Shown: positions 31,879 to 61,557 of the stretch, piece after piece
Position numbering within the stretch: the stretch's first letter is position 1
Layout: every line of letters starts with the position of its first letter
Source of the DNA: Centroscyllium fabricii
Lineage: Eukaryota
Reading direction: 5' to 3'
NCBI GenBank assembly: GCA_051313645.2
Contig: JBNRSN020000011.1
Span: 96,224,001 to 96,288,000 of the forward strand
DNA: 64,000 nt
The notes under the pieces: generated by a model
Told to the model about the DNA's origin: nothing
The model's database searches: none
The model's input: only the letters and a program-made list of their open reading frames with translations
Program-made: the position numbers and the translations under genes

Positions 31879-31906
31879 GAAAGCTCTAAATTCAGAAGGA
31901 GATAAT

Positions 31907-34767: not shown

Positions 34768-34827
34768 TACTACATTAGAGGGCTTTCAGTCAAACAGATC
34801 ATGCTATATGAAACTACAAAAATATAC

Positions 34828-38219: not shown

Positions 38220-40795
38220 AAGATCCCAAAAGGACTACAGATCACGAACCCACTCAAGTCGACCTACAACACAGACTACGCGGAGAGACTCTGCCGCCGT
38301 ACTTCTTACAAACTCCTCAACCATCTCGTACACCAGCTCTACAGCAGACGCCGCAACCTCGAAACCAGGATGGAGTCCATGTTCTCAGCCTTTGCCCAGG
38401 ACACAGCAGACCAGCTACGAGACACCGCCAAACAGACGAGGCAACGGAACTACACTGCTTACATGCACATCAAGAACAGGAAGCTTGAGAAACTCGGCAT
38501 CACCACCAGCAGCAACCAAGCCTCCACTGGTACCACGGTTGAAACCGCAGGGAAATCCATCGTCAACTTGTCCGACCACACCCTTCAACCAGATGAAATC
38601 GAAGTTCTCAGCCGAGGGCTCAAATTCTGCCCCACCACCAAAATGGACCCCATCGGTCTTGCGGCGGACACAGAGGAATTCATCAGGAGAATAAGGCTTC
38701 CACAGATCCCAAGATGTCAGCGAACCCAATGAGACAATCAATGATCTGGAACAGCTGAGAGGAATCCACAGTGCAGCAACCAAAGAAGAATGAATCAAAT
38801 GGGACTCCTCCAGAGGGCCGCTGCCCTAAGCTGGACATGTATGCTCAAGCTGTCAGGAGATGCATCAATGCCAAATTCATCAGCCGCACTCACAAGACAG
38901 TCCAGAATGTCACCCGAGCACAACGCGACACCATCCGCGCTCCAAGACCAACCGCAACATCGTCATCAAACTGGCAGACAAAGGAGGAGCCATCGTCATA
39001 CAGAACAGAACAGACTATTGCAAAGAAGCATACCGACAACTGGACAACCAAGAACACTACAGACAGCTACCCGCAGATCCGACCAAGGAACACACCCGCC
39101 AACTCAACAGACTGATCAAGACCTTCGATCCAGACTTTCAGGGCACCCAACGTGCCCTCATCCCACGGAATCCCCGCATGGGAGATTTCTACTGCCTCCC
39201 AAAGATACACAAAGCCAACACACCTTGACGCCCTATTGTATCAGGCAGTGGAACCCTATGTGAGAACCTCTCTGGATACATCGAGGGCATCCTGAAACCC
39301 ATCGTACAGAGAACCCCCAGCTTTTGTCGCGACACTACAGACTTCTTACAAAAACTCAGCACCGACGGACCAGTTGAACCAGGAACACTCCTTGCCACGA
39401 TGGACGTATCGGCACTCTACACCAGTATCCCCCACAATGATGGCATCGCTGCGACAGCTTCAGTACTCAACACCAACAACAGCCAATCTCCAGACATCAT
39501 CCTACAACTCATCCGCGACCACAATGTTTTCACCTTCGACAACAATTTTTTTACCCAAACACACGGAACAGCCATGGGGACCAAATTCGCACCCCAATAC
39601 GCCAACATCTTCATGCACAAGTTCGAGCAAGACTTCTTCGCTACACAGTACCTCCAACCAACGCTATACACCAAATACATCAACGACATTTTCCTCCTGT
39701 GGACCCACGGTGAAGAATCACTGAAAAGACTACACGATAACATAAACAAGTTCCATCCCACCATCAAACTCACCATGGACTACTCCTCAGAATCGGTTTC
39801 ATTCTTGGACACACGAATCTCCATCAAAAACGGACGCCTCAGCACTTCCCTCTACCGCAAACCCACGGACAACCTCAGGATGCTCCACTACTCCAGCTTC
39901 CACCCGAACCACGCTAAAGAAGCCATCGCCTATGGACAAGCCCTGCGAATACACAGGATCTGCTCAGATGAGGAGGAACGCGACGGACACCTAGAGACAC
40001 TGAAAGACGCCCTCGTAAGAACAGGATATGACACTCGACTCATCGATCGACAGTTCCGACGGGCCACAACGAAAAATCGCATAGACCTCCTCAGAAGACA
40101 ACTACGGGACACAACCAACAGAGTACCCTTTGTCGTCCAGTACTACCCCGGAGCGGAGAAACTACGCCATGTTCTTCGCAGCCTTCAACGTGTCATTGAT
40201 GACGACGAACACCTCGCTAAGGCCATCCCCACGCCTCCACTACTCGCCTTCAAACAGCCGCCTAACCTCAAACAGACCATCGTTCGCAGCAGATTACCCA
40301 GCCTTCAGGAGAACAGCAACCATGACACCACACAACCCTGCCACAGCAACCTCTGCAAAACGTGCCAAATCATCAGCACAGATACCATCATCACACGTGA
40401 GGACACCATACACCAGGTACATGGTACATACGCATGTAACTCGACCAATGTTGTCTACCTCATACGTTGCAGGAAAGGATGCCCCGGGGCATGGTACATC
40501 GGCGAGACCATGCAGACACTACGACAACGGATGAACGGACAACGCGCAACAATCGCCAGGCAGGAGTGTTCCCTCCCAGTCGGGGAACACTTCAGCAGTC
40601 AAGGACATTCAGCCTCCGATCTTCGGGTAAGCATTCTCCAAGGTGGCCTTCAAGACACACGACAACGCAAAATCGTCGAGCAGAGGCTGATAGCCAAGTT
40701 CCGCACCCATGAGCACGGCCTCAACCATGATATTGGATTTATGTCGCGCTACATGTGACCCCGCCTGACGTAGAGTCATCCAGACTCGAACCATC
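38220..40795 (+). mobile_element. Penelope-like retroelement (RT + GIY-YIG endonuclease), 5'-truncated and defective; open 452-codon segment 39400-40758
   Basis: ADKGGAIV, FYCLPKIHK, DVSALYTSIP, GTAMG, YINDIF (YIDD altered), VVYLIRC…YIGET…GLN; frameshifts and a stop upstream. Confidence 0.95.
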
Positions 40796-40875
40796 TTTGG
40801 CTTGTTCTGCGATTTCATAAGAAAAATCCTTGTTTTTAAAAATCCTTGTGGGATTTTCACAGACAGCAGACTTTA

Positions 40876-42711
40876 ACATAAGAACATAAGAAATAGGAGC
40901 AGTAGGCGGCCAATCGGCACCTCGCGCCTGCTCTGCCATTCAACAAGATCATGGCTGATCTGATCCTAACCTCAATTTTATCTTTACTCTCCACCCGCCC
41001 AGACCCATGTGATCACCTGGGAGAGGCGAAAAACCAGATAAAAAACCCAGTGGCCAATTTGGGAGAAAAAAAATCCGGAAAATTCCTCTCCGACCCATCT
41101 AGGCGATCGAAAACTGGTCCAGGAGATCACATGGCCGATCTGAACCTAGCCTCACGTCCACTTACCTGCCCGCTCACCATAACCCCTAATTCCCTTTAAT
41201 TCCAGGAAACTGTCTATCTCAGTTTTAAATTTATTCAACGTAGTAGCTTCCACAGCTCTCTGGGGCAGCAAATTCCACAGCCCCACCACCCTCTGAGTGA
41301 AGAAGTTTCTCCTCATCTCAGTTTTGAAATGGCAGCCCCTTATTTTAAGATTATGCCCCCTAGTCCTAGTTTCACCCACCATTGGAAACATCCTCACCGC
41401 ATCCACCCGATCAAGCCCTCTCACAATCTTATATGTTTCAATAAGATCGCCTCTCATTCTTCTGAACTCCAATGAGTAGAGGCCCAATCTACTCAGCCTC
41501 TCGTCATAGGTTAGCCCCCTCATCCCCGGAATTAACCTGGTGAACCTTCTCTGAACTCAAGAGCAAGTATGTCCTTTCTTAAATAGGGATACCAGAACTG
41601 CACGCAGTATTCCAGGTGTGGTCTCACCAATACCCTGTACATTCTGTTGGCCTTCCTTACCACCTGCTGCACCTGCATATTAACTTTTTGTGTTTCCTGC
41701 ACCAGGACCCCCAGATCCCTTTGCACTGAAGTACTTTCCAGTTCCTTTCCATTTAGATAATAACTTGCTCTATTATTTTTCCTGCCAAAGTGCATAACTT
41801 CACATTTTCCAGTATTATACTCCATCTGCCAAATCTCTGCCCACTCACTTAGCCTATCTATGTCCTTTTGCAGGTTAATGTCCTCCTCATTCATCACCCT
41901 CCCTCCCATCTTTGTGTCATCCGCAAACTTTGATATGTTGCACTTGGTCCCTTCTTCCAAATCGTTAATATAGATTGTAAAGAGTTGGGGTCCCAGCACC
42001 GACCCTTGCGGAACACCACTAGTCACTGACTGCCAGTCTGAGAACAAACCATTTATCCCAACTCTCTGTTTTCTGTTAGAAAGCCAATCCTCCACCCATG
42101 CCAGAATATTACCCCAACCCCGAGATTTTTTATCTTGAGTAATAATCTTCTGTGGGGCACCTTGTCAAATGCCTTTTGGAAGTCCAAATACACCACATCC
42201 ACTGGTTCCCCTTTATCCACCCTATATGTTATGTCCTCAAAGAACTCTAGCAAATTTGTCAAACATGACTTCCCCTTTGTAAAACCATGCTGACTTTGTC
42301 CTATTAAATGGTGTTTATCCAAATGCCCTGTTACTGTTTCCTTAATAATAGATTCTAACATTTTGCCAACCACAGATGTTAGGCTAACTGGTCTATAATT
42401 TCCAGCCTTCTGTCTATTACCCTTTTTAAATAAGGGCGTTACGTTAGCAGTTTTCCAATCTGCCGGAACCTTTGCCGAGTCCAGAGAGTTTTGAAAAATT
42501 ATTACCAACGCATCCACAATCCCTACCGCCACCTCCTTCAAGACCCTAGGATGTAAGCCATCAGGTCCAGGGGATTTATCCTCCTTAAGTCCCATAATTT
42601 TCCCAAGTACCACCTCCTTAGTGACTTTAATCGTAATTAGCTCCTCCCCCCCTAGAGCCACCTGTTTATCCAATGTTGGGATATTTTGAGTGTCCTCCAC
42701 TGTAAAGACTG
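40876..42711 (-). mobile_element. CR1 LINE 3' 1.8 kb (subfamily with structured UTR insert)
   Basis: RT motifs and tail matching 1-413. Confidence 0.95.
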
Positions 42712-42985
42712 TAACATTTGACCCTTTGTGACTGCACCCTTTGATCTCAGGCTGACTGATATGTTAGAACACCTTTGATTGCTTTGATGTCCCTCAGCTG
42801 AGGTGTGATGTCAAACAGCTGGAGAGACCACATTGTTCTCTCTCAGCATATATATATATATATATATATAATGTTTAAATGAATCTCGACACTTCACCTG
42901 AGGAAGGAGCAGCGCTCCGAAAGCTTGTGATTTAAAATAAAACTGTTGGACTATAACCTGGTGTTGTGTGACTTCTTGCATTTAT
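42712..42985 (+). mobile_element. Penelope terminal repeat (pLTR) fragment
   Basis: (TA)n, hammerhead motif, AATAAA and TGTTGGACTATAACCTGGTGTTGTG end. Confidence 0.75.
42894..42930 (+). ncRNA. Minimal type I hammerhead ribozyme of a Penelope-like element
   Basis: TCAC-CTGAGGA-A-GGAGC-AGC-GCTCC-GAAA-GC-TT-GTGA: catalytic core, stem II, stem I and palindromic AAGCTT in place of stem III. Confidence 0.75.
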
Positions 42986-42991
42986 CGAACA

Positions 42992-44005
42992 AAAGGCAGA
43001 GAGTTGGGATAAATGGGTCATTCTCAGACTGGTAATCGGTAACGAGTGGTGTTCCGCAGGGGTCAGTGCTGGGTCCCCAGCTCTTTACAATTTATATTAT
43101 CGATTTGGAGGAGGGAACCGAGTGTAACAGATCAAAGTTTGCAGATGATACTAAGATGGGAGGGAAAGTGGTGAATGAGGAGGACATAAAGAACCTGCAA
43201 GGGGACATAGACAGGCTAAGTCAGTGGCAGAGATTTGGCAGATGGAATACAATACTGGAAAGTGTGAGGTTATGCACTTTGGCAGGAAAAATCGTAGAGC
43301 GGATTATTATCTTAATGGCAAGAAACTGGAAAGTACTGTAGTACAAAGGGATCTGGGGGTCCTGGTGCACGAAACTCAAAAGGTTAGTATGCAGGTGCAG
43401 CAAGTGATTAAGAAGGCCAATGGAATGTTGGCTTTCATTGCTAGGGGTATAGAATATAAAAATAGGGAGGTATTGCTTCAGTTGTACAAGGTATTGGTGA
43501 GACCGCACCTGGAATACTGCATACAGTTTTTGGTGTCAATACTTAAGGACATACTCGCTCTCGAGTCGGTACAAAGAAGGTTCACTCGGTTAATCCCAGG
43601 GATGAGGGGTTGGACATATGAGGAGAGGTTGAGTAGATTGGGACTCTACTCATTGGAGTTCAGAAGAATGAGGGGCGATCTTATTGAAACATATAAGATT
43701 GTGAAGGGGTTGGATCGGGTGGATGCGGGGAGGATGTTCCCAATGATGGGTGAAACTAGAACTAGGGGGCATAAACTTAGAATAAGGGGCTGCTCTTTCA
43801 AAACTGAGATGAGGAGAAACTACTTCACTCAGAGGGTAGTAGGTCCATGGAACATGCTGCCCCAAAAAGCTGTAGAAGCTACTTCATTACATAAATTTAA
43901 AACAGAAAGGGATTAAAGGTTACAGGGAGCGGGCAAGAATTTGGACATGAGTCTAGGTTCAGATCGGTCATGGTCCTGTGGGTAGTGGAGCAGGCCCAGG
44001 GACCG
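42992..44005 (+). mobile_element. CR1 3' region ending at an assembly gap
   Basis: RT C-terminal motifs; near-identical to the reverse complement of about 47877-48890. Confidence 0.93.
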
Positions 44006-44205
44006 NNNNNNNNNNNNNNNNNNNNNNNNNNNNNNNNNNNNNNNNNNNNNNNNNNNNNNNNNNNNNNNNNNNNNNNNNNNNNNNNNNNNNNNNNNNNNNN
44101 NNNNNNNNNNNNNNNNNNNNNNNNNNNNNNNNNNNNNNNNNNNNNNNNNNNNNNNNNNNNNNNNNNNNNNNNNNNNNNNNNNNNNNNNNNNNNNNNNNNN
44201 NNNNN
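44006..44205. other. Assembly gap (200 N)
   Basis: Run of N. Confidence 1.
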
Positions 44206-44285
44206 GAATGGACCAGGAATATTCAAGAAAAAAATTGAGCCGACGGTGAGGCTCGATGGGAATATTTTTAAAATCAATATTTGTA

Positions 44286-45001
44286 CAGGTTGAGCACCGT
44301 TAATCCGTGTCCCGAATAGCCGGCAGCTTCAGTCTGCCGGCACAAATTGCCCCGACTGCACTGCGCATGCGCAAAATGGCAGCCCCCATCGTGGCTTCAG
44401 CGAATGATCTGCGCATGCGCCGAGCGCATGCGCAGATCATTCAAAACAGCTGCGGGTGTTTTGAATGATCTGCGCATGCGTCACCGGCCGGTTAGCGCAT
44501 GCGCAGATAATTCAATACGGCCGCCCGTTATTTTCTCGACAGCTGAGCCCCGTGACTGAGGCGGACAGTCACTAGGCAACAGCTGTCAGCCTGAGTCCCG
44601 CTCGGCGGCAGCAGCAACCCCAAAGGCGATAATGCGGAGGTGCCTGTGTTGGACTGGGGTGGAGAAATGCAAAAAGTCACACAACACCAGGTTTAAAGTC
44701 CAACGTTTTATTTTAAATCACAAGCTTTCGGAGCTGCGAAAGCTTGTGATTTAAAATAAAACGTTGGACTTTAAACCTGGTGTTGTGTGACTTTTTGCAT
44801 TTGTCCAAAGGCGATGGAGAGGGATGGCGGACCCGGGCCCGATCTGCGCATGCGCGCGCCGGCGAATCGCAATGCCGCGCGCATGCGCGCGGCCATTTTG
44901 ACTGGCGCGCATGCGCAGTGTCCAAACTCGTTCTCCCGGTTTTTTCCATTTCCCGGCACGGGCCTGGTCCCGCCCGTGCCCGATTAACGGTGCTCAACCT
45001 G
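44286..45001. mobile_element. Tigger-like NRF1-motif MITE, copy 5 (X-box cargo plus nested Penelope hairpin)
   Basis: TA|CAGGTTGAGCACCGTTAATC…GATTAACGGTGCTCAACCTG|TA. Confidence 0.93.
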
Positions 45002-46719
45002 TATTGCTTTGTTACTGTGAGTTGTGTTGAAGAGGATGCTGGGGAAGAGGTTGAGGCCATCCATCTGTGTAATTTATTTCGATTGTTGGGAGTGGGTCGC
45101 AGTGGGCAAAAATGTTAGCTAGGGAATTAGCTCTTAACTCCCATTAATGTCACCTTACCTCCATGATATTCCTCACTGATTCCGAATATTCCTCTTTGCT
45201 TTCATCCACATTTGTAATGTCTAGCTGTGGCTACAGAACACATGCCACTTAACATCCCCATCTGCTTGTCCAATATTACCCTGTACTTGTCACCTAGAAT
45301 GTGTTGTTCTACTACGCCACTGTGCCCCTCTGGTGCCTGGTTGACCCAAATAAGTAATATTTTCGATTAGTACATAAAATTTCACATCATTGTCTCCATA
45401 TTGCTGGACTTCCTAATCCCTATTCCTTGCCCATTATCACCCCATCTTTCGTAATATGCCCTATTCCCTTAAACTGTCGCCACCTGCCCAGCATGAGAAC
45501 GCGTCCCCCCTATGGTGCCCTTGTGATCCTTTGCGGGCTTGCAAGATCTCCCTCTACCCCTTGCTTCCCAACATCTATTGCCTCCTCAGTCACCAACATC
45601 CCCTCTCAGCTATACTTGCCTGAGCCAAGTAATTTTTTTGCTGAAACTGGGCAACATGCAATAGACTTCGGGAACAAATGAAAGATGGAGCAAGCCCCAA
45701 ACATTACAGGAATGAGATTGAACAGGTGAGAGGTGGTGCAGCGAGTGGATTGCCTTGATGAAAAGTGCTCAGCGGGTGACAAGGCCTGAGGAGTTAAAAG
45801 AGCTGGGAGAACTGCTGTTGGGCTTGGGCTGGAAGATGATAGTACACTCAAGCCCATTGCGCTCAGACACCAGACAGCAGGAACAGAGCACTGGCAAGGA
45901 GAGGGGCTTAGAATGGGTTGACAATCAAAGAACAGGAAGATTAAACAGAGCCACTAAGGAAAAGACAGAGTAGGACCGTCAGCATGAGCTTCACAAGGAC
46001 AATCTCAGAGTTGGAAAAAAAAGTTGGGGAGGACAGAACCAGAACAGCATTCTCTGTACTTTAGTAATACAGCCTGTAGTGCCATTTCAGTAAGAATCAT
46101 AGTTAGCTGCATACGAAAGCCACACTTTAGAAGCCAGAGATGTTTAACCACACAGTCTTGCAGTGTACATTCAGGACAGTGCAGCGCTGCAAAAACTGGA
46201 AAAGAACACTTCAGGTGGTGATCTGTAACTATTTACTGCTGTCTGTAGCTTTTGTCGGGGAAGCACACTACAGCAGAGGATGTCCATTTACCGTCAGCAG
46301 CAGCAAGCGATCGACTAGCACAAATGGTGGATTTCACAATTCTGCACCAAGGCTCTTCATAGCCTCGCCCTCCTAACCCATTCCCAATTCTGGCCTCTTG
46401 TGCATTTACACCCACCCACTTACTCTATTTAAAAGTATATAAATATCCACTTAACCCAAGGTTTGTAGTAATACATTTTCCTATTGCATTTTTGAGCCAA
46501 GCCCTAAAAATCACTTAGAAAAGGAGAAAGTGGCTACACTGTTAATACATTGCAGGAGATCACAGGCTGGAAAACTTCCAATTTTAAATTGAGGAATGGA
46601 AGAAAGCCTTTACAATCCCAGAGAACACTGAAACCAAACATTGAAACCAAATCACCTTCTGATATATTCCTTTAAACAGAAAGTACTGAATCTAAAGCAC
46701 TACAGTCCTTTCAGTATTA

Positions 46720-47432
46720 CAGGTTGAGCACCGTTAATCCGCGTCCCGAATAGCCGGCAGCTTCAGTCTGCCGGCACAAATTGCCCCAACTGCACTGCGC
46801 ATGCGCAAAATGGCAGCCCCCATCGTGGCTTCAGCGAATGATCTGCGCATGCGCCGAGCGCATGCGCAGATCATTCAAAACAGCTGCGGGTGTTTTGAAT
46901 GATCTGCGCATGCGTCACCGGACGGTTAGCGCATGCGCAGATAATTCAATACGGCCGCCCGTTATTTTCTCGACAGCTGAGCCCCGTGACTGAGGCGGAC
47001 AGTCACTAGGCAACAGCTGTCAGCCTGAGTCCTGCTCGGCGGCAGCAGCAACCCCAAAGGCGATAATGCGGAGGTGCCGGTGTTGGACTGGGGTGGACAA
47101 ATGCAAAAAGTCACACAACACCAGGTTTAAAGTCCAACGTTTTATTTTAAATCACAAGCTTTCGAAGCTCCGAAAGCTTGTGATTTAAAATAAAACGTTG
47201 GACTTTAAACCTGGTGTGTGACTTTTTGCATTTGTCCAAAGGCGATGGAGAGGGACGGCGGACCCGGGCCCGATCTGCGCATGCGCGCGCCAGCCAATCG
47301 CAATGCTGCGCGCATGCGCGCGGCCATTTTGAATGGCGCGCATGCGCAGTGTCCAAACTCCTTCTCCCGGTTTTTTCCATTTCCCGGCACGGGCCTGGTC
47401 CCACCCGTGGCGGATTAACGCTGCTCAACCTG
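46720..47432. mobile_element. Tigger-like NRF1-motif MITE, copy 6 (near-identical to copy 5)
   Basis: TIRs and TA flanks; flanking DNA differs from copy 5. Confidence 0.93.
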
Positions 47433-47704
47433 TATAAGCATTTAAACTGTAACTGGAAAGTTGACTGAAGAAACCCAAACATTGGACTGTTAGGACTGCA
47501 AAAGATTGAATCGTTTCAAACATCTGCCCTTAAATTCTGTAAGTACTCCATTTCTTTCACATCAAAATTTGACAGAACTGCAATACATTTGGTAAAATTC
47601 TAATACTCAATTGAAATGCATACCACTCATCACCCTGCAGGCAGATATGATAATGGATTATGAAATCAGCCTTGTTGGTGACTTCACAGAATTTCATAAC
47701 AGCT

Positions 47705-49162
47705 ACATAAGAACATAAGAAATAGGAGCAGGAGTAGGCCAATCGGCCCCTCGAGCCTGGTCCGCCATTCAATAAGATCATGGCTGATCTGATCCGAACC
47801 ATCAATCTACTATCACAGAACCATCTCCTGAATCTAACAGAATTAGACACCCGAAATAGGAGCAGGATCAGGCTATACGGTCCCTGGGCCCGCTCCACTA
47901 CCCACAGGGCCATGACCGATCTGAACCTAGACTCATGTCCAAATTCCTGCCCGCTCCCCGTAACCCTTAATCCCGTTTACTACTAGGAAACTGTCTATTT
48001 CTGTTTTCAATTTATGTAATGATGTAGCTCTACAGCTTTTTTGGGCAGCATGTTCCATGGACCTCTGAGTGAAGTAGTTTCTCCTCATCTCAGTTTTGAA
48101 AGAGCAGCCCCTTATTCCAAGATTATGCCCCCTAGTTCTAGTTTCACCCATCATTGGGAACATCCTCCCTGCGTCCACCCGATCCAACCCCTTCACAATC
48201 TTATATGTTTCAATAAGATCGCCCCTCATTCTTCTGAACTCCAATGAGTAGAGTCCCAATCTACTCAACCTCTCCTCATATGTCCAACCCCTCATCCCTG
48301 GGATTAACCGAGTGAACCTTCTTTGTACCGACTCGAGAGCGAGTATGTCCTTTCTTAAGTATTGACACCAAAAATGTACGCAGTATTCCAGGTGTGGTCT
48401 CACCAATACCTTGTACAACTGAAGCAATACCTCCCTATTTTTATATTCTATCCCCCCAGCAATGAAAGCCAACATTCCATTGGCCTTCTTAATCACTTGC
48501 TGCACCTGCATACTAACCTTTTGAGTTTCGTGCACCAGGACCCCCAGATCCCTTTGTACTACAGTACTTTCCAGTTTCTTGCCATTAAGATAATAATCCG
48601 CTCTATGATTTTTCCTGCCAAAGTGCATAACCTCACACTTTCCAGTATTGTATTCCATCTGCCAAATCTCTGCCCACTTACTTAGCCTGTCTATGTCCCC
48701 TTGCAGGTTTTTTATGTCCTCCTCCCTCACTACTTTCCCTCCCATCTTAGTATCATCTGCAAACTTTGATATGTTTACAATCTATAGATTGTAAAGAGTT
48801 GGGGTCCCAGCACTGACACCTGCGGAACACCACTAGTTACCGATTGCCAGTCTGAGAATGAACCATTTATCCCAACTCTCTGCCTTCTGTTAGATAGCCA
48901 ATCCTCTATCCATGCCAGAATATTACCCCCAATTCCGTGATTTTTTATTTTAAGCAATAATCTTGTGTGGCACCTTGGCAAATGCCTTTTGAAAGTCTAA
49001 ATACACTATGTCCACCGGTTCCCCTTTATCCACCCTATATGTTACTTCCTCAAAGAACTCCAACAAATTTGTCAAACAAGACTTCCCCTTCATAAAACCA
49101 TGCTGATTTTGTCCTATTAAATTATGTTTATCCAAATGTCCTGTTACTGTCTCCTTAATAAT
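47705..49162 (-). mobile_element. CR1 3' region with doubled tail
   Basis: 270-aa ORF2 C-terminus at 47933-48745 and two tail modules. Confidence 0.95.
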
Positions 49163-49385
49163 CTACCACCATTCAGTAGCCAAGAAAGTAAAACGCTCAC
49201 AAAGATCAAAAAACACTCGCACTCTGCTTTTCACCAACAAACAGGCAAGTCTTGAGATTACATGCTCAACAATGGTGTCCATTGCTCATTTGTTAAATTA
49301 TCAGAAAAGCAATTAGCCACATCTGGATTCCCAATTAGCCACATGTGGCTAGCGACCAACATATTGGACACAGTTCCATATAATT

Positions 49386-49542
49386 GAAATAAAAACAAAA
49401 AATGCTGGAAATACTCAGCAGGTCAGGTAGCATCTGTGGAAGACAGAAACAGAGTTAACGTTTCAGGTCATGGACCAGAAACATTAACTCTATTTTCTGC
49501 TTTATGTCAGATTTCCAGCATCTGCAGTATTTTGCTTTTCTG
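49386..49542. mobile_element. Short Penelope-derived inverted-repeat remnant
   Basis: AAATGCTGGAAATACTCAGCAGGTCAGG…AGAGTTAACGTTTC / GAAACATTAACTCT…TTTCCAGCAT. Confidence 0.6.
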
Positions 49543-49684
49543 TATAATTGAATATTGCTTTGTAACCTGAAAAATAAATGATATGATGATAATGTTCAAT
49601 ATTTAAATTCTGCCAGCCTGTTAGTTCTCCATTGTGCAAATACTGCACACTGTTACCTCAATAATAAGATCTTCCTTTGCTTAC

Positions 49685-49830
49685 TTGCTTATTCAGCTCT
49701 GTGATGTTGGTCCATATTTTGCTAATCCCTCTGTCTCCAGTGTCTATGTTGATAAGGTCCTTCTGGACTGCAAGAAGGTCTTCACTTAGCTTTGGAATGT
49801 CACTAAACGAGGCCTTTTGACTAGATTCCA
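49685..49830 (-). CDS. EFCAB14: EFCAB14 exon (approximately human exon 3)
   Basis: ESSQKASFSDIPKLSEDLL…GISKIWTNITELNKQ vs recalled human ESNQKSSFQEIPKLNEELL…GLNKVWINITEMNKQ; 146 nt, phase 1 to 0. Confidence 0.96.
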
Positions 49831-50603
49831 CTACAAGGATAAAAAAAAAATCCAGTTTTAAGACTAAAACATGCAGAAATGCAAAACTGTATAAAGAGTA
49901 CAAGATAAAAAGAATTAAAATGTCCTTGTTTAAATCAGTTCAAATTCTTAAGTTTGATTTTTTTTTTTTTTTTTTTTATAAAAGATTTACTCCATATCTG
50001 CCTTGGGAAAAAAAAAACAACTAGGTCATCCCAATGAAAAATTGAAAAACTGGATGATGCAGTGGATTAAATGCTGGCTTGCATCTCAGATATAGATTCA
50101 AATCCAATATAATTGGAATGAAAATCTCCTATCTGTTGACTACAAGTTCTTTTGTGGCACCTAAATGGAGACTTGGGTAGGTAGTCTCAATTTAGGTGCC
50201 AAAAGCCATGGAGTCATTCCATAAAAATGCTAATTTGGCAATATTTGTCTCTCATTCAGAGATGGTTGTGTAGGAAATAGAAAAATGCCACAATCATAAC
50301 ACTGGTGCAGAAGGGGAGGTTTTTCCTGAGCTTGGAGTTGAGACATATTCTTCAGGGAGTGTAACTGTGCTATCCTCTACATCTAAATATGGAAATACTA
50401 ATGGAAGTGTTGCAGTCCTCAGTACTAAAAGTTCCCACACCTTGATCAACGTTAAAAAGTAAAATAAACTTGCCTGTAATACATGATATGTATTTAAAAC
50501 TACAAGGACCAGACCTATCTATATTGCACAATGTACCATACGTGGCAATTATTTAAAAAATGCTTTAATCAGAACTTTACACCAAAATTGATACTTGCCA
50601 ATA

Positions 50604-51085
50604 CAGGTTGAGCACCGGTAATCTGTTACCCGAAACGCCGGCAACTTCAGTGGTCCGGTATAAATCGCCCCGACTGCACTGCGCATGCGCAAAATGGCAG
50701 CCGCGATCGAGGCTCCGGTGAATGATCTGCGCATGCGCCGCCGAACGCATGCGCAGATCATTCAAAACGGCCGGCGGACGAGCCGGGCCTTCCATGGCAT
50801 CAGGGCGCGGCGGCTCGCGCTGCGTTTTGAATGCGCGAGTCCCGAGCGCCCGCCATGGTGAAGCACACGGTTCCCCGGAGCAGCCTGCAGGCCGTCATTA
50901 GGAGGCACAAACCGCAGCGGAGACTCAGCAAGGACGTTCGGCGGCCATTTCCAATGTTTTGCGCATGCGTGCAGCCATATTGAATGGTGCGCGCATGTGC
51001 ACTGACCGACTTCATTCTACTGTTTTTTTCTCTTTCCCGGCACGGGCCTGGTCCCGCCTGTGCCGGATTACCGGTGCTCAATCTG
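50604..51085. mobile_element. Tigger-like NRF1-motif MITE, copy 7, carrying a CENPW-like fragment
   Basis: TA|CAGGTTGAGCACCGGTAATC…GATTACCGGTGCTCAATCTG|TA. Confidence 0.92.
50855..50938 (+). pseudogene. CENPW: Captured CENP-W-like N-terminal coding fragment
   Basis: GCCCGCCATGG Kozak context; MVKHTVPRSSLQAVIRRHKPQRRLSKDV vs recalled chicken MRRTVPRGTLRKIIKKHKPHLRL and human PRGFLKRVFKRKKPQLRL. Confidence 0.7.
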
Positions 51086-52010
51086 TAGCATCAAACATTT
51101 AGCAAAGACATTGCTACTAGGATTACTTCTTGTGACAAGTTTCCTGTGTTATTTCATGTGTTATTGCAGAGCTGGTTGCAGCATAGTTTCTCTGCAGTAC
51201 AAACGGAGGTGTAATTACATGACAAGTTTATGTAGGCAGTTTCCATTTGTGGCCATAGAAATTTGTAATAGAAAGTTGGCAGAGGCACCTACAGTTCACA
51301 TTTCATTGGCCAGCCACACAGATCATGGGAGAGACAAAGAGGAACAGTGCACTTAGGTCATAAATCATGTGCCAGAGGTCAAGGGCAGTTTCAGCTGGAA
51401 TAGTCCTATTTTCACAGCTATCCAAAATTTTCCATAAAAACATGCTTCTTGGGTAGAACAATCACATGCTTCTTGGGGAGAACAATCATGGAGAAAAAAA
51501 AATACACTACACGTCATTCTCTGACAAATCATTTGCCCAAATAATCTGATCAAACGGGTTTCCACCACCTCTCAAAATCTAGTATTCATACCTGAAACCC
51601 AAATTATGCAATAAGTGCAACATAGCCAGCTTCATTTAATCAAGCTTATTCAACTCAATGGAGTTGATTAGAAATGAATCTCCAGGTCTTTTTAAATCAG
51701 CGCTCACCCAGCTTAAATAAGCCTATCTTGTTGAAACTGAATAAAATTTGCTTACTTCAAACAGTAACGCACTGGTGAGAATCAGATCCCAGATAAATAA
51801 ATAATGTACCCCTCGAACTCATCCAACATGTGCAAAATATTGACAACAGAATGCTGGACAGAGGAGATGAAAGGGAATTGGGGGAGGAGATAGTGGCAGG
51901 GCTTGCCATAATTTTCCAATCTTCCCTAGATGTGGGGGATGTACCGGAGGATTGGAAAGTGACAAATGTGACACCATTATTCAAAAAAAGGTGCAAGGAC
52001 AATCCTAGTA

Positions 52011-53259
52011 CAGGTTGAGCACCGTTAATCCGGTAACCGAATAGCCGGCAGCTTCAGTCTGCCGGCACAAATTGCCCCGACTGCACTGCGCATGCGCAAA
52101 ATGGCAGCCGACATCGTGGCTTCAACGAATGATCTGCGCATGCGCCGAGCGCATGCGCAGATCATTCAAAACAGCTGTGGGTGTTTTGAATGATCTGCGC
52201 ATGCGTCGCCGGAAGGTTAGCGCATGCGCAGATAATTCAATACGGCCGCCGGTTATTTTATCGATAACTGTAATTGAAGCCATGATGTGGAGGTGCTGGT
52301 GTTGGACTGGGATGGACAATTGTAAGAAGCCACACAGCACCAGGCTGTAGTCCAAAAGTCCCACTCGAAACGGGGGAGCGGCGCTCCGAAAGCCCGTGAC
52401 CCCAACTAAAGCCGTTGGACCACAGCCTGGCGCCGTGTGACCTCTTACAGAGCAAAACGGGATTGGATAAATTGCCCCCGCGCCACCCTCCTTTCCCCCC
52501 CCCCCCCCGACCCGACCCGCGCCTTCCTCCCCCCCCCCCGCACCCGCGCCTTCCTCCCCCCGCCCCCCCCCCGGACCCGCGCCTTCCCCCCCCCCCCGGA
52601 CCCGCGCCTTCCTCCTCCACCCCCCCCGGACCCGCGCCTTCCTCCTCCGCCCCCCCCGGACCCGCGCCTTCCTCCTCCCCCCCCCGCCCCCCGCGGACCC
52701 GCGCCTTCCTCCTCCCCCTCCCCCCCCCCCGGACCCGCGCCTTCCTCCTCCGCCCCCCCCCCCCCCGGACCCGCGCCTTCCTCCTCCCCCCCCCCCCCCC
52801 CGGACCCGCGCCTTCCCCCTCCTCCCCCCCCCCCCCCCGGACCCGCGCCTTCCTCCTCCCCCCCCCCCCCCGGACCCGCGCCTTCCTCCTCCCCCCCCCC
52901 CCCGGACACGCGCCTTCCTCCTCCCCCCCCCCCCCCGGACCCGCGCCTTCCTCCCCCGGACCCGCGCCGCGCCGCGCCACCCTCCTGCCTCCCCCCGCAA
53001 GACCGGCCTTTCACTGCTGCCCGACAGCCCTAAAACCTAAACGGAACGCCACAAAAGCCTGAGCCCATCAAAAAACTTCGCGGCGGCCAATATTGGACGA
53101 TCTGCGCATGCGCGCGCCAGCCAATACCAATGTTGCGCGCATGCGCGCTGCCATTGTGACTGGTGCGCATGCGCAGTGTCCAAACTCGTTCTCCCGGTTT
53201 TTTCCATTTCCCGGCACGGGCCTGGTCCCGCCCGTGCCGGATTAACGGTGCTCAACCTG
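52011..53259. mobile_element. Tigger-like NRF1-motif MITE, copy 8, with Penelope piece and C-rich minisatellite (about 52475-52980)
   Basis: Perfect TIRs; TA duplication inside CR1 coding sequence. Confidence 0.93.
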
Positions 53260-53694
53260 TAACTACAGGCCAGTCAGTTTAACATCAGTGGTGGGTAAAG
53301 TTTTAGAAACAATAATCAAAGAAAAAATGGGTGTTTGGAGAGGATTAAGCCAATTAAGGAGAGCCAACACGGGTTTGTAAAAGGCAGATCATGCTTTACT
53401 AATCTAATGGCTAATGGAATTTTTTGATGAAGTAACAGAGATGATCGATGAAGGGAATGCAATGGATGTTGCCTACATGGATTTACAGAAGGCGTTTGAC
53501 AAAGTACCACATAGAAGGATGGTTAACAAAATTGAAGCTCATGGAAAAAGTGAGTCAGTGGCAGCTTGGATAAGGGATTGGTTTAAGGATAGAAAACAGC
53601 GAGTTGTGGTAAATGGCTGTTTTTCAGACTGGAGGATGGTAGACAGTGGAGTTCCCCAAGGGTCAGTGCTGGGGCCACTGCTTTTTTTGATATA

Positions 53695-54002
53695 TAGGTT
53701 GAGCACCGTTAATCGGTTACCAGAAAAATCGGCAACTTCGAACGTCCGGCAATAATTTCCCCGACTGCCCTGCGCATGCGCAAAATGGCCGCTGCGATTC
53801 ATGCTTCGGCGAATGATCTGCGCATGCGCCGCCGAACGGCGAGTGCATGCGCAGATCATTCACAATAGTCTCTCCGAGCCGATCGCGGTGGCCATTTTGA
53901 ATGGTCTACGCGTGTGCTCGCCGAGCTTCAATCGTTCGGGATTTTCACTTTCCCGGCACGGGCCTGCTCCCGCCCATGCCGGATTTAACGGTGCTCAACC
54001 TG
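53695..54002. mobile_element. Tigger-like NRF1-motif MITE, copy 9 (minimal, essentially no cargo)
   Basis: TAGGTTGAGCACCGTTAA…TTAACGGTGCTCAACCTG, TA flanks, within CR1. Confidence 0.9.
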
Positions 54003-56007
54003 TATAAATAAATGACCTGGATATTGCAATATTGAATAGAATTTCTAAATTTGCCGATGATACCAGACTTGGAGGTGTGGCAAACAGTGATGACGATACC
54101 AATCGACTGCAAAAGAACATAGAAAGGATAGAAGAATGGGCAGACAAGTGGCAGATGGAATTTAATGCAGAAGTGCGAGGTGATGCATTTTGGCAGAAGG
54201 AACAGGGAGAGGCAATATACACTTAATGGCACAGTTTTAAAGAGTGTGCAGGGACAGAGGGACCTGGGAGTTAATGTGCATAGGCCCCTGAAAGTGGCAG
54301 GACATATTGAGAGAGTGGTTAACAAAGCAGATGGGATCTTGGGCTTCACAAATAGAGGTATTGAATACAAAAGTAGAGAAGCTATGCTGAACCTTTATAA
54401 ATCATTGGTTAGGCCACAACTGGAGTATTGCGTCCAGTTCTGGTCACCACACTTTAGGAAGGATGAAGACCCTTGAGAGGGTGCAGAGGAGATTTACCAG
54501 AATGGTTCTGGGGATGGGGGATCTTAGCTACAAGGACAGGTTGGAGAAGTTGGATTTGTTTTCATTAGAGCAAAGGTTGAGGAGTGATTTGATAGCGGTG
54601 TACAAGATTATGACGGGTTTGGATAGGCTAGACAGGGAAAGGCTGTTCCCACTAGTTGATAGTACAAGGACTAGGAGCCACAGATTTAAGGTTTTGGTAG
54701 AGATACGGGGGGATGTGAGGAAAAACTTTTACGCAGTGAGTGACGATGATCTGGAATTTGCTGCCGGTGGAAGTGGAGACACCCAATGTTTTCAAGGGGA
54801 GACTGGATGAGGGAAATAAATGTGCAGGGCTACGGGGATAGAACGGGGGAATGGGACTGACTGGATTGTTCTACAGAGGGATGGCACGGACTCAATGGGC
54901 CGAATGGCATCCTTCTGTGCCATTATGACTGACTATGTAGGCCAAATGTGAATCAGTATTATGCTTACCGACCAGAGTCCATTATTACAGCAACTTGCAT
55001 ACAATATATTATAATAGACCACTAAAAGAATATAATGTTAGCTTCTTTTTCACCCTATTATTTCACATAAAATGCTTGCTACTTAATAACATGCGCCTCA
55101 CACCCACAGCTTATTCCAGGAACTCAACAATCTGGTCAGAATCGGTTTTCTGTAAGCCACCAACAGTTGGAAAAAGTTTCAAAGAACAGCTCCACTTTCG
55201 CTGCAATCACAGCAATGCGTAATGAGTAATTGCCATCCTCTACACTACTACAATTTATGCAAGAAAAAAATCTGGACTAACAGGTCATTGGAATATATAT
55301 ATATCTTGTATAAATAAAATACTTGAACATCACCTGCACTTGTGACGGAGACCAGCTTGTCACTGAATAATGTAGTTACCTTCATTTGTGAAGCACTGTA
55401 TTCAACCACTATCTAAGCACTCTTCTCTATAAATAGCATATCAAAAAACTGCAGTAATAAATCATTCATGTTTCATAAAGGGATTCAGTTTGAAATATTC
55501 CAAAAGACCAGGCAAAAATGCAAGATATGAAATGGTGTGTAGGCTTCACAACTAAACACGTTGCATTTAGCACATGTGCATCATACGAAGTGTCCTTCAA
55601 ACAAAAGTTATAATTGGAACCCCCCCCAGGAACCAAAAATCTTACTGCCTTGTCTCAACATATTGGAAACAATCCACTGCCACATGCAACCCCCTCAATC
55701 TGTACTGGTTTTTTTTCTTTGCTTCTTTCCATCTTCATTCATTTCTATTTGCTACTGCTCACATATTTATCTACTGCCAGTCCATTCCCACTACTTTATT
55801 TATTTCCTGTTGGCCTGTTAGATTATTAATCGTTTCCAGCACACCCCACAAGCAACACGCCAAAGGCAACATCACAATCTATACAATTCCGTGGTCAATG
55901 CAAAGTAATATCTACCATATTTTATAACACGTGTTCCATAACATAACACTTAAAATCAACAAAACAGTATGCCCTCCATCTTAATCTGAACAATACAAGA
56001 CATAAAA

Positions 56008-56440
56008 GCAAGACTTGCAATTATATAGCACCTTTTACAACCTCATGACTTCCCAAAACGCTTTACAACCAATGAAGCACTTTTTTTTTTTTTTTTTTTT
56101 TAAAGTGTAGTTACTGTTGTAATGTAGGAAACGCAGCACCCAATTTGCAAGCTCCCACAAACAGCAATGTGATAATAACCAGATAATCTGTTTTAGGTGT
56201 TGGTTGAGGGATAAATATTGTCCAGGACAGCAGGGAGAATTTCCCTGCTCTTCTTCAAAATATTGCCATGGAATCTTTCACGTTCACCTGAGGCGCCTCG
56301 GTTTAACGTCTCGTCCAAAAGGCGGCACCTCCGACAATGCAGCACTTCCTCAGTACGGCACTGAAATGTCAACCTAGATTTTTGTGCTCAAGTCTCTGGA
56401 GGTGGGACTTGAACCCACAACCTTCTGACTCAGAGGCACA
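56008..56440 (-). mobile_element. tRNA-derived SINE with L2-type tail (DeuSINE/SacSINE1-like)
   Basis: GGGACTTGAACCC B box, conserved core, CTTGCAATTATATAGC tail. Confidence 0.75.
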
Positions 56441-57089
56441 GCTAAGTTCAAGTAGAGCAAGTTGTTTAGCCGTAAGATTTCTCAAATTAAGTGACTATAC
56501 TCACATCAATGTTATAACCATGGCGAAGATGAAGGTATATTGAGTAAAGAGGAATTAAATTGCTAAGCACACATGATATGTATGCTTGTGTAATTCAAGC
56601 AGTAGCACAAACAAACTCTTTGGTCGATGCTTGTGTATTGTTAGTTCACTCATGTATAGAGTTTTAAAATGATGGGTCAGAGGAGTGCAATTCTCTGCAG
56701 TGAGTTGTCGATTTAGCTAGGCAGTTGGAGAGGTTGTTAATTTCCATAGGGAGAAGAAAAATCAGAAACGCAAAATAATCAGCACTGCTCTCATAGCCAG
56801 CCAGCTCAAATGCAGCATTTGAAAAGACCTTCGGGCAGATTACCTGCCACCCTTTACTCTGCAGTGAGCTAAATTAGGAGGCGTAAAAAAACTACTGTAG
56901 AGCAAATTACAGACATAAACTTTCTATGTTTGCTCAACTAGCATTTCCAAATCTTTTTCCTACACATTAACAAAATATTCACTTGAGCCTCAACAGCTAA
57001 AATTAGTTGTCTTTGAACAATGGCCTTCTCAAAATATTTAGCTTTCCAATGCAATGTGGCATTAACCACAAATTATGAGTCTATTTGCA

Positions 57090-57545
57090 ATATCATCAAC
57101 AAGATTAACATATACGATGAACAGCAAAGGGACCCAGAATTGATCCCTGGGGAAGGCTTTACAATTAGACAGCTTCGACCAGTAATCAATACCTTCTGTT
57201 TTATATTATCTAGCAAATTCACTATCCAGTTTACAACTTCTTCCTTGATCCCATAAACCACAAATCTACTGCAGATTACCAAACTGTCAGAAAAATTCAC
57301 CATATGACAGAATAGCCCGATAATCGTCAACCCTTCAGAATTCCAATGTTTCATAATTTCAAGAATTGTGAAATGAAAAGGAAAAACTATTCATGTTGAC
57401 TGGAACGTATTACCTTGATCATGGACGAGTGTTGTTGCTATCTTTCCAATATCCCCACTGAAGACATGATGCTAATAAGCCTATAAATACCAGGATCATT
57501 CTTCCCACCTTTTTTAATACAATGAACTCATTAGGTACCTCAGAG
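57090..57545 (-). mobile_element. Highly decayed CR1 RT fragment
   Basis: YGIKEEVVNWIVNLLDNIKQKVLI remnant. Confidence 0.55.
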
Positions 57546-58574
57546 TTAATGTGTAATCCCCGACTCAAAAGGATTCAGAAACAGACAGGAATCTGCACTG
57601 TTATTGTGCCTCATCACTTTACATACATCCCAAAATGTTGGACAGTACAGTACAGTGCCGTAACTGGTGCGAGTAGGTGAAATGACTGCTCAAATATTAC
57701 TAATGGTAATGAGTTTGAGGAGTCCAATATAACTCGTGGCATACAATAAAACTGAATTTATGGTTTTATATACAGTATAAAGTATTTTAAGCCACCAATG
57801 TAAATGTCACACCATAATTTGTAAACCTGTCTGTTGAGCAAAATCTCTGAGCCTTGTCCCTAGGTTTATAGATCATAACACCTGCAAGGTATGACAAATG
57901 GAAGAGTGTCATATACAGGGTACCATTATTACCAGCAATTATGCAGCTAATCTAAAAAGATATTTTGATAAAAGTTACATTCAAATAAATATACTGCTGA
58001 ATATTCTTCCCAACAGAACCCCTCAGCACCTTCATTTCAACATAGGCTTCAAATTCAGTCCAGTCTAGGAATTGATCCATTGCTGTACATCTCTGAAAAG
58101 CACTCTATTGGCTGAATATGCTGTAGTATCAATCAGGCAGTGTCTTTTTCCAGAGTCAGGTAGCTCCAGATCACTGAGTCCAATCCAGGGGACTAGGTGA
58201 TGCAGTGAGTTGCACACTGGACTCAACTCTGGGATTTGTGTTTGGATTCAACCACAACTAATAGGACAAAAGTTCCTCTGTGTGATGCGCCATTACTACT
58301 TTACAACTTCCACAACACATGCTCTAGGCCTTTGCGCATCAGGATATATACGTGGATGTATTTGTGCTCAAGACAGTTGCTAGTGCTACGGAATGCAGCA
58401 TTTTCCATTTTTTACACCCAGTATTAGCAGTAAGGTCAGATACAACACAGGTTAGATGCTGCATGCAAGGTAAAGCTCCTTCTACACCACCCAATAATTC
58501 ATCTCAACCCCAATCTTCATTAACCACCCCATACTGCCCAGTGACATTTCCATTTACCACTTGAAATACTAGTA

Positions 58575-59186
58575 CAGGTTGAAGTTCGTTAATCCGGCAC
58601 CCGAAAAACCGGCAGCTTCAGTCGTTCGGCACAGATTTTCCCGACTGCCCGGCACATGTGTAGACAATTCAAAATGGCCACCGTCGGGGCTGGGCTTCTC
58701 TTTCACCTAACTTATACTCACTGGATCCCGGCTTAGTGACCACCCCGATGCCGATGGTGAATCCCAGGCCCAGAAGATGAGCTGTTCTGCCAGCCGCATT
58801 TCACAGGACGCGATACAGGCAATTCTCGGTGCCCATTGCTGCCGGAGGCTCCTGCCTGGCTGCGTGCGGATGTCACCGTGTTCCGAAGCTGGCGTGCAGT
58901 GGCGTCACGTGAGCCGGGCTTGAGCCGCCCATTGGGCCTCAGGCCCGCTGGAGCTGTGCAGCCCGCTCCCTGATCTGCAGCAGAATCGAGTGCGAGTTCC
59001 ACCCGACCCTTGGGCCGAAAATCAACTCCCAGGTACCAGCGAGCGCATGCGCAGAGCATTGAAAATTTTGTGGCAGCCAATTTGAATGCTCGGCGCATGC
59101 GCCGCCGTGGCTTCAATAATTCGGCGTTTTCAATAATCCGGCAGGGTTCTGGTCCCGACCCTGCCGGATTAACGAACTTCAACCTG
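58575..59186. mobile_element. Tigger-like MITE, copy 10, carrying a CYB561D2-like promoter and first coding exon
   Basis: Perfect 25-bp TIR CAGGTTGAAGTTCGTTAATCCGGCA with TA flanks. Confidence 0.93.
58722..58836 (-). pseudogene. CYB561D2: Captured CYB561D2-like first coding exon with intact donor and one TGA
   Basis: MGTENCLYRVL*NAAGRTAHLLGLGFTIGIGVVTKPGS|gtgagt vs recalled human [37 protein letters not shown]. Confidence 0.8.
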
Positions 59187-59382
59187 TATTGTTTCTCATT
59201 TCTCTCAATCAACCTACTACCTGGATGTAAAACTGAGCAATATCGCACTCTGAATGTCCCACATACAAAGCTTTGGTTTCCTTAAAAGTTTCACTCATCT
59301 AATAAGAGTTCAATTCACATGAAGCTTACTTAAATTCCTATTCTCCACAGTCCAATCTTACGTTACAATAGAATATACTTAC

Positions 59383-59531
59383 ATGTTCTGAACTTTTCTT
59401 TCAGTGCATCCAGATCTTCTTTGAGGGCAACCTGCATCCAGACCAAACCAACACAAGCCACTACACAAGCAGCTAGCATAACAAATGCACACAGAGGATA
59501 ACAAATCCTGCAGCATCTTATGTAGCCTCTC
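59383..59531 (-). CDS. EFCAB14: EFCAB14 exon 2 (transmembrane segment)
   Basis: GYIRCCRICYPLCAFVMLAACVVACVGLVWMQVALKEDLDALKEKFRT, almost identical to recalled human EFCAB14; 149 nt, CAG/GTAAGT. Confidence 0.97.
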
Positions 59532-60269
59532 CTGCAACAGGAAGAACAAAAGGCAAGACTGAAATACCATTTGACACCACTAAATAAAATAACTGACATT
59601 TTCACCCATTTAGCTTACATAATCTCTTAGTAAAGTTGTGCAATGGCCAAGAGTTGAAAAAGGTGTCACTATTTCATAGAGCAAATAGCTGTAATTATGA
59701 TTAACATTTTTCTGTTCTGTCCATTTCTGCTAACTTGTGAACATTTTTGTTGAACCAGCGATTACGGAAGGCAGCATTAGGAGGGCTTCAAGGGATTGTA
59801 AAATGTATGAGTATGCAGAGTGCATTTAGTTTTATTTCACTATCAGCCATGTATGTTATTGCTACTCCGTTAAATTTTAAGCTCACTCAGTAAATCTAAT
59901 GAAGTCACAAGCGCTAATTATCCAAGCTTCATAGTCAGGCTATTTTTTTCATATTTATAAATCTAAATATCATATTTAGAATGATGTAATCAGGTTTTTT
60001 ATTATTCAACTTCAGTTACTTAATTTATATTTAATGGGTAGAAGTGCCATCTAAAGTCCAAGCCAAAATTAGGCAAATTCAGGGAAAAAAGCAAATATAA
60101 AATTTTAAGTCTAAAAATTACTTTAAGAGTCTACTTAAAACATCATTAGCAAAATGGTTACTGCATTTGATAAAATAACTTTGGGTGGAGGGCAAAAAAC
60201 AGTTTGGCAGAAACATGCTCACAAACATGGAGAAAACGAATTCAGACTGTTTCTCTCCCCACCCAAGTA

Positions 60270-60736
60270 CAGGTTGAGCACCGTTATACTGGCACGGGCA
60301 GGACTAGGCCCACGCTGGTAGAGCGAAAAAACCGGTAGAATGAAGCCGGCCAGTGCGCACGTGCACCATTCAAAATGGCCACGCGCATGCGCACAACATT
60401 GGGAATGGCCGCCGAACATCCTTGTTGAGTCTCAGCTGCGGTTTGTGCCTCTTGATGACGGCCTGCAGGCTCGCTTCGCCATGGCGGGCGCTCGGGACCC
60501 GCACAAATTGCGACGCGTGCCGCCGTGCCCTGACGTCACGGAAGGCCCGGCTCAGCAAGCGGCCGTTTTGAATGATCTGCGCATGCGCTTACTGTTCGGC
60601 AGCGCATGCACAGATCATTCGCCGAAGCATCGATCACGGCGGCCATTTTGCGCATGCGCAGGGCAGTCGGGGCGATTTATACTGGACGACTGAAGTTGCC
60701 GGCGTTTCGGGTAACGGATTAACGGTGCTCAACCTG
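60270..60736. mobile_element. Tigger-like NRF1-motif MITE, copy 11, second CENPW-like cargo (60415-60482, minus strand)
   Basis: TIRs with TA flanks; cargo MAK…SLQAVIKRHKPQLRLNKDV with a 16-bp deletion relative to copy 7. Confidence 0.9.
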
Positions 60737-60892
60737 TATAGGATATCTACTGACAACCATCAGCTATAAGAAACAAGGGTTAAAAATGGCAAATACTCAT
60801 TTTAGAATCAACTTTAAAACTATATACCCAACATTTTTTTTAAATGTTACTTCAGGAGATACTGAGCTATTATACTTCCAGTTAAGTTGGTA

Positions 60893-61415
60893 CAGGTTGA
60901 GCACCGTTAATCCGCGTCCCGAATAGCCGGCAGCTTCAGTCTGCCGGCACAAATTGCCCCGACTGCACTGCGCATGCGCAAAATGGCAGCCCCCATCGTG
61001 GCTTCAGCGAATGATCTGCGCATGCGCCGAGCGCATGCGCAGATCATTCAAAACAGCTGCAGGTGTTTTGAATGATCTGCGCATGCGTCACCGGACAGTT
61101 AGCGCATGCGCAGATAATTCAATACGGCCGCCGGTAATTTTCCCGACAGCTGAGCCCCGTGACTGAGGCGGACAGTCACTAGGCAACAGCTGTCAGCCTG
61201 AGTCCGGCTCGGCGGCAGCAGCAACCCGAAAGGCGATGGAGGGGGAACGCGGACCCGTGCCCGATCTGCGCGTGCGCGCGCCAGCCAATCGCAATGCTGC
61301 GCGCGGCCATTTTGACTGGCGCGCATGCGCAGTGTCCAACCTCGTTCTCCCGGTTTTTTCCATTTCCCGGCACGGGCCTGGTCCCGCCCGTGGCGGATTA
61401 ACGCTGCTCAACCTG
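60893..61415. mobile_element. Tigger-like NRF1-motif MITE, copy 12 (as copies 5/6 but without the hairpin)
   Basis: TIRs with TA flanks; single AAAGGCGAT at the empty site. Confidence 0.93.
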
Positions 61416-61557
61416 TACTACATAGATAGGTGCTTATTTTATGAAAGTAAACAGATGTGACAAGTAAAACTTTGCATTGCTTGTTTGGGTGTTTTGAGTG
61501 ACCGGGGCAGTTGAATCTGTGAATTGACATGTACTACATGAACACAAATCATACAAT

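Follow-up and report, generated by a model that had tools for sequence, protein, structure and literature searches.

A CENPW 5' end carried by a Tigger4-like miniature transposon and its probable spread as a high-copy Pack-TIR subfamily

The window, by which we mean the whole stretch of 64 kb that was analysed, contains at 60268-60738 on the minus strand a complete non-autonomous element with terminal inverted repeats (TIRs), here called copy B, which measures 471 bp including the TA dinucleotides that bound it (60268-69 and 60737-38) and has a GC content of 0.60 and a CpG observed/expected ratio of 1.19. The interval singled out by the initial annotation, 60270-60736, is this element minus its two TA dinucleotides. 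Its termini form a perfect 19-nt inverted repeat, TA included: the left TIR with its TA (60720-60738, minus strand) starts with CAGGTTGAG, a Tigger4-type end as in TcMar-N17_AC according to the accessible part of PMC3014272, and the right TIR with its TA lies at 60268-60286 (minus strand). Inward of these follow two arms that are common to a family of miniature elements (MITEs) in the window, the left one (60560-60719, minus strand) with an inner hairpin of GCGCATGCGC and AAAATGGC motifs at 60570-60620, and the right one (60287-60416, minus strand) nearest to the right arm of an element at 23712. DNA fold z-scores, each from 40 shuffles, were -3.7 for the left arm (60560-60738), -2.3 for the other arm and -0.4 for the centre of the element, a cargo of about 143 bp that is present inverted in a second element, copy A.

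The cargo of copy B consists of a non-coding 5' part (60483-60559, minus strand; left border approximate), which contains TGACGTCA at 60531-60538, and of a relic of the CENP-W N-terminal coding sequence (60417-60482, minus strand; 24.2 bits against a CENP-W model), which starts with a Kozak-type ATG, suffers a 16-bp frameshifting deletion between 60471 and 60472, and then resumes with approximately codons 10-27 before ending within what would be the first exon of CENPW. The heptapeptide HKPQLRL, which had been reported as retained, is indeed encoded here, but the deletion places it out of frame with the copy B ATG (60482-60480), whose own frame stops after 16 codons. Judged by its reading frame, copy B is a dead relic that is predicted to make no CENP-W peptide. 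The CRE motif is likewise present, but its supposed retention is unproven, as copy A reads TGGCATCA at the same site; the TGACGTCA 8-mer occurs twice in the window, about as often as expected by chance, and we rejected it as a sign of function.

Copy A lies at 50602-51087 on the plus strand, with its cargo at about 50774-50936 and its ATG at 50855, and is near the majority sequence of the subfamily. In a self-BLAST of the window, 50598-51087 aligns to 60742-60268 in reverse orientation with 81.7% identity, the two lying 9.2 kb apart, which bears out the initial annotation of a second, inverted and diverged copy about 9 kb away with its own TA flanks. The multiple substitutions and the 16-bp deletion described there also held up: of the 464 sites aligned without gaps, 61 are unlike (13% divergence), and compared with copy A, copy B is shorter by gaps of 16, 4 and 2 bp and longer by one of 7 bp. 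The missing 4 bp belong to a TTTGAA hexamer at 50826-50831 of copy A, about 25 bp 5' of the ATG and preceded by a GC-rich E2F/CDE-like stretch. We take TTTGAA to be a possible cell-cycle promoter element (CHR), and CENPW presumably to be a DREAM/CHR target; this reading of the hexamer is weak, because it is also present in the MITE arms.

How are the two copies related? Both share the same two cargo junctions, which is most simply read as one capture with subsequent transposition, and their flanks are unrelated (local scores of 20 and 19, matched by 54 and 156 of 200 shuffles), such that the proposed transposition after capture fits the data and the flanking DNA that a duplication would have shared is missing. 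Among the 40 of 451 variant rows listed for the public sequencing runs described below, copy A carries the majority letter at all 11 variant sites inside copy B, and the changes of copy B at those 11 sites are therefore private. A tree of right arms, built from 10 rows with two divergent elements left out, clusters the right arm of copy B with its counterpart in the 23712 element, and not with copy A (support 92/90, below the 95 mark); the left-arm tree did not resolve the placement of A and B. We considered and rejected a parent-daughter relationship, given that A carries the majority letters and that the right arm of B groups with an element of another cargo. This grouping suggests that arms or cargos may have been exchanged between subfamilies. 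Past the deletion, three of the five codon changes between A and B alter the residue. CpG positions differ in 26 of 122 cases, compared with 16 transitions at 184 other C/G sites, and this excess suggests that the copies were at least partly methylated. Non-CpG divergence is 35/342. Available parts of PMC5499810 discuss a rate of 1.6e-4 per site per million years and another about six times faster. For an elasmobranch host, these rates would translate the divergence into very roughly 50-300 million years. The best explanation is that A and B are independent, old insertions that decay neutrally.

Both copies belong to a larger population. Allowing up to 6 mismatches to the TIR, we recovered 23 ends, all 23 starting with TA, which make up 11 complete elements and one unpaired end. 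Together with nested insertions the family covers about 11% of the window; its CpG observed/expected ratio is 1.04, compared with 0.46 outside, and it holds 45 of the 45 GCGCATGCGC and 21 of the 28 AAAATGGC/GCCATTTT motifs of the window, which we presume to be those known under the names NRF1 and YY1. The arms themselves resemble the motif arrays of housekeeping promoters. At least five different cargos occupy the family interiors, several of them similar to promoter or first-exon pieces. The initial annotation of a high-copy subfamily understated the case: alongside the CENPW elements, the same MITE family comprises further cargo subfamilies.

The second cargo (element at 58573-59188, plus strand) spans about 340 bp and, read on the minus strand, comprises promoter-like motifs (CCAAT, GC-box and TCACGTGA), then an ATG with some 38 codons and a GT splice donor plus intron-like bases. 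We assume it to be CYB561D2-like; its peptide gave nothing useful in Pfam, PDB or a word index. The third cargo, with an X-box-like motif and an ATG, is present at 60891-61417 (plus strand), 44284-45003 and 46718-47434, in young copies that are 2.5-3.8% apart. Two of these three share a nested insertion, which is palindromic and derives from another repeat; since it is common to both, the element has moved again after receiving it. A fourth cargo (23712-24365, minus strand) comprises a 5'UTR-like stretch, an ATG and an acidic frame with stops and a frameshift; this element has a second, inverted version of its left arm. The element at 52009-53261 (plus strand) combines arms of the third-cargo group with another interior, made of another repeat, a GC-rich tandem array (500 bp, 52477-52996) and a CCAAT-bearing stretch. 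Two short members, 53693-54004 (plus strand) and 21356-21619, have no obvious cargo and are strongly palindromic, with fold z-scores of -8.9 and -9.3 (40 shuffles each). The family members at 33896-34769 and 31195-31883 have interiors of short tandem units. The former also bears a SINE-like insertion, presumably a V-SINE with a LINE tail; the latter provides the end without a partner TIR, and some 12 bp of its tandem unit recur at the left edge of the CENPW cargo. A scan of 30 of the 86 long frames revealed no transposase, and TIR scans of metagenome and viral contigs for an autonomous partner returned 0 matches. The window at large is repeat-rich animal DNA with LINE reverse-transcriptase fragments, its repeat types suggest a shark host, and a 200-N assembly gap (44006-44205) sits between LINE fragments to the left of the 44284 element.

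How might a MITE come to carry the start of a gene? We consider it highly probable that a pogo/Tigger4-type MITE captured the 5' end of CENPW and became a high-copy Pack-TIR subfamily. We envision that the MITE took up about 160 bp of this 5' end between its arms, comprising the start codon and about 27 codons and probably also 5'UTR and proximal promoter. Conceivably, the palindromic centre of the MITE breaks or stalls the replication fork, and during repair a short piece of an open promoter is then copied in. Capture would thus represent DNA-level repair by template switching, along the lines of the gap-filling or FoSTeST models described for Pack-TIRs (Tan et al., 2021, PMC8277862, in the part available). 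DNA-level capture is favoured over an RNA route by the splice donor and intron-like bases at the end of the 58573 cargo. Open CpG-island promoters may be favoured donors, and the GCGCATGCGC and AAAATGGC motifs common to arms and promoters possibly help capture. The chimera would have kept both TIRs and been moved in trans by a transposase of presumably Tigger type, and the same MITE family would have repeated the capture with other cargos.

Alternatively, two neighbouring MITEs at the CENPW locus may have mobilised the intervening DNA as one composite unit whose inner ends subsequently disappeared. Such a route has been proposed for plant Pack-TYPE elements (PMC8903248, in the part available), and the grouping of the right arm of B with another subfamily indicates that the arms are perhaps of mixed origin. 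However, no remnant of an inner TIR is present among the 23 ends found, the cargos occupy the same central place as the arm join in short members, and one junction falls inside a coding exon. We thus regard the composite route as unlikely, and capture into the centre of a single MITE as the preferred reading.

The extent of the subsequent spread was estimated by comparing four of 16 listed public runs, all of them in the form of assembled contigs, with 58520-61519 at 80% likeness. Run X1 reproduces the flank next to copy B over 1129 nt with 0 differences, and this identity implies that X1 stems from the species of the window and is possibly its source; runs X6, X9 and X13, the last of which may be an RNA run, are recorded as three other organisms. 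In X1 the flank adjoining copy B is represented by a single contig of 1129 nt at a depth of about 9-10, whereas at the cargo sites 60418, 60425 and 60526 there are 100, 106 and 95 contigs with variants (the counter stops at 128). The corresponding numbers are 50, 51 and 53 in X6, 12, 21 and 21 in X9, and 9, 12 and 8 in X13. Moreover, 50 X1 contigs break at 60471 with letters that fill the 16-bp gap of B (reading MVKRAVPRS), 48 break at 60505 with A-like letters, and 373 extend past the TIR end at 60738 into dissimilar flanking sequence (agreement 0.37). The initial suggestion of a high-copy subfamily is therefore borne out by the contrast between a single flank contig and roughly 100 distinct ones at each of three cargo sites, and other copies do exist beyond the window.

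Multi-copy status is independent of sequencing depth, while a figure on the scale of thousands rests on it. Summed X1 depth over the cargo bin is 425,868, about 41,000-fold over the flank; summed contig depth is not a copy number and cannot rank parts, and we derived a bound by a separate argument, namely that one copy adds at most 31 overlapping 31-letter words per base. Division by 31 yields floors of about 1,300 copies for the cargo bin, about 1,900 at 60425 and about 550 at 60526, with a ceiling of about 40,000-60,000. We accordingly put the CENPW subfamily at no fewer than hundreds of TA-flanked copies, with thousands being probable. A more modest subfamily of tens to a few hundred copies, with a genuine capture and a depth inflated by short overlapping contigs or by the arms of other subfamilies, might be argued from the nature of summed depth and from its drop to about 800 at 60508, where copy B has private changes. 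However, overcounting is limited to 31 words per base per copy, and depth is high across the coding part, where it is cargo-specific because the majority letters are those of copy A. With two copies in a single 64-kb window as well, we consider a modest subfamily improbable, even more so than the composite route, and retain the high-copy reading.

The other cargos are abundant, too. The 58573 cargo is multi-copy with deep cover in all four runs, its stop codon is private (243,162 of 254,760 depth units have another letter), and in X1 both this cargo and the third one are covered very deeply. The ratio of CENPW to arm depth is 0.012 in X9 and 0.008 in X13, compared with 0.146 and 0.086 in the other two runs, and third-cargo depth is near zero in X9 and X13 (7-57). 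These cross-run patterns hint at successive waves, bearing in mind that contig depth cannot rank parts. At 60412-60474 one X1 contig with a depth of 144 lacks the greater part of the CENP-W coding relic, which points to a further deleted sub-subfamily, and X13 contigs with B-like right arms run on into a different interior. An exact DNA scan for the cargo pattern in metagenome contigs gave 0 matches.

What identifies the cargo as CENPW? The 30-residue peptide of copy A found six matches in the PDB (E up to 10), of which the top four are CENP-W (best E 0.0026) and the remaining two Sleeping Beauty domains. When the A and B peptides were combined into a profile and searched against 1.84 billion proteins, two matches resulted: a seabird CENP-W isoform, in which residues 1-25 align to profile positions 1-25 (E 9.1e-4), plus an unnamed repetitive ORF that scored over four stretches. 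Consistently, an HMM of the CENP-W N-terminus, built from 117 of 120 retrieved N-termini (three without the anchor motif were dropped, and none came from the window), gave 33.2 bits for A and 24.2 bits for B among 2582 window segments, with the next segment at 5.5 and a maximum of 10.1 bits in 10 shuffled windows. The CENPW-like nature of the cargo, as first annotated, thus finds support from three kinds of search, and the assignment of its coding part to the CENP-W N-terminus has good support at the level of sequence. Only about the first 27 of 76 CENP-W residues are covered; an intact frame across the histone fold is absent, copy B being frameshifted, and a full-length CENP-W HMM detected no later parts of the protein in the 64-kb window. 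The parental CENPW was found neither in the window nor among the 24 of 2160 loose contig ends listed. A homologue search from the bird CENP-W match gave no shark protein among the 120 listed of 151, the named ones being bird or turtle proteins and nearly all CENPW; the 50-residue frame of copy A had no match in a word index, and Rfam had 0 matches across the window. The roughly 80 bp 5' of the ATG would represent CENPW 5'UTR and proximal promoter, since this stretch adjoins a Kozak-type ATG and is absent from the other elements of the window; there, it is common to copies A and B only.

The cargo might instead be a relic of a Tc1/pogo transposase helix-turn-helix, in an internal-deletion derivative whose likeness to CENP-W is a matter of chance. 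The two Sleeping Beauty matches concern its PAI domain (E 0.43 and 0.65), and Pfam reported weak HTH_SB (E 0.085) and HTH_psq (E 0.11) hits for the 30-residue peptide and no CENP-W match for the two cargo peptides. Yet CENP-W scores better in the PDB and is the only named match in 1.84 billion proteins, with start codon aligned to start codon; the alignment has 14 of 28 residues identical and 22 of 28 similar, and the KPQLRL part lies outside the helix-turn-helix matches, all of which renders such a relic very unlikely. Retrocopies are usually truncated in the manner opposite to a cargo with the 5' end only. Least probable of all, to a degree that we consider negligible, is a segmental or local duplication of the copies, which are just 9.2 kb apart but diverge by 13% within unrelated, single-copy flanks, or a CENPW retrocopy within a MITE, given a cargo that is the 5' end only, lacking poly(A) and later exons.

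If the capture of CENPW by a high-copy MITE is correct, its copy count lies far above what is known for vertebrate gene-carrying DNA transposons of this kind; in the available part of a survey of 100 animal genomes, gene capture by TIR elements was nearly always single-copy and passive (PMC8277862). From a broader and, in our judgement, rather doubtful perspective, a vertebrate Pack-MITE system may repeatedly harvest CpG-island promoters with first exons and amplify them into subfamilies of thousands to tens of thousands, with the promoter cargo aiding spread through accessibility, and with cell-cycle and housekeeping promoter modules, scattered across the genome, in some cases acting as promoters or enhancers or making small RNAs against their parents. 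Several gene starts at very high copy would, if true, place a vertebrate system beside the Pack-MULEs of plants and the Helitrons of bats. One family would then make it testable where and by which route capture occurs, how promoter cargo relates to transposition success, and whether mass copies of the CENPW promoter disturb or rewire the regulation of an essential centromere gene. A practical risk consists in false CENPW annotations, mismapped reads and the masking of a real promoter as a repeat.

How does this element compare with known systems? In line with Tigger4-like MITEs, it has a TA duplication, TIRs of about 20 bp starting with CAGGTTGAG, a length of a few hundred bp, no transposase and dispersed copies; Tigger elements of Chondrichthyes have a TA duplication and TIRs of 18-23 bp (PMC9219625), and TcMar-N17_AC of Anolis has Tigger4-like ends according to its authors (PMC3014272). 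The TIR differs from that of TcMar-N17_AC past about 11 bases, however, and gene cargo is not mentioned for Tigger4-like MITEs in the accessible parts of these two papers. As in plant Pack-TYPE elements, including Pack-Mariners, which are mostly low copy (PMC8903248, in the part available), the ends are conserved and the interiors change. MER6, a mariner-type MITE, spread a captured SINE domain (PMC6887750, as accessible), whereas the cargo here derives from a host gene. Bat Helitrons favour promoter, 5'UTR and first exon, reached higher numbers when carrying 5' ends, and include HelibatN3-NUBPL with about a thousand copies (Thomas et al., 2014, PMC4224331, in the part available); those move by rolling circle and have neither TIRs nor a TA duplication, in contrast to a cut-and-paste MITE with central cargo. 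On this MITE family itself we found no paper among the best-ranked matches in mainly open-access literature.

The closest likeness is to metazoan Pack-TIRs, which are equally non-autonomous TIR elements that enclose a host-gene fragment. According to the accessible text of Tan et al. (2021, PMC8277862), TcMariner/Tigger elements are a main carrier and one case includes a 5'UTR piece; multicopy examples contain GC-rich captured DNA far from the parent, with distinct target duplications. The element described here has a non-TE interior homologous to a host gene in PDB, profile and HMM searches, and several copies at distinct insertion sites, as seen from the flanks of A and B and from about 100 cargo contigs against one flank contig. 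Judged from these sequence features, the CENPW element works like a multicopy Pack-TIR. Differences are in age and scale. The cases of Tan et al., as far as their accessible text goes, are young with a located parent, whereas here the parent is absent from the data searched; four cases (1.4%) are multicopy, the example shown has three copies, and Supplementary Data 2 lists 0 Pack-TIRs for the elephant shark (PMC8277862). In the present family, by contrast, one cargo reaches at least 10^3 copies by our bound, and several cargos ride on one family.
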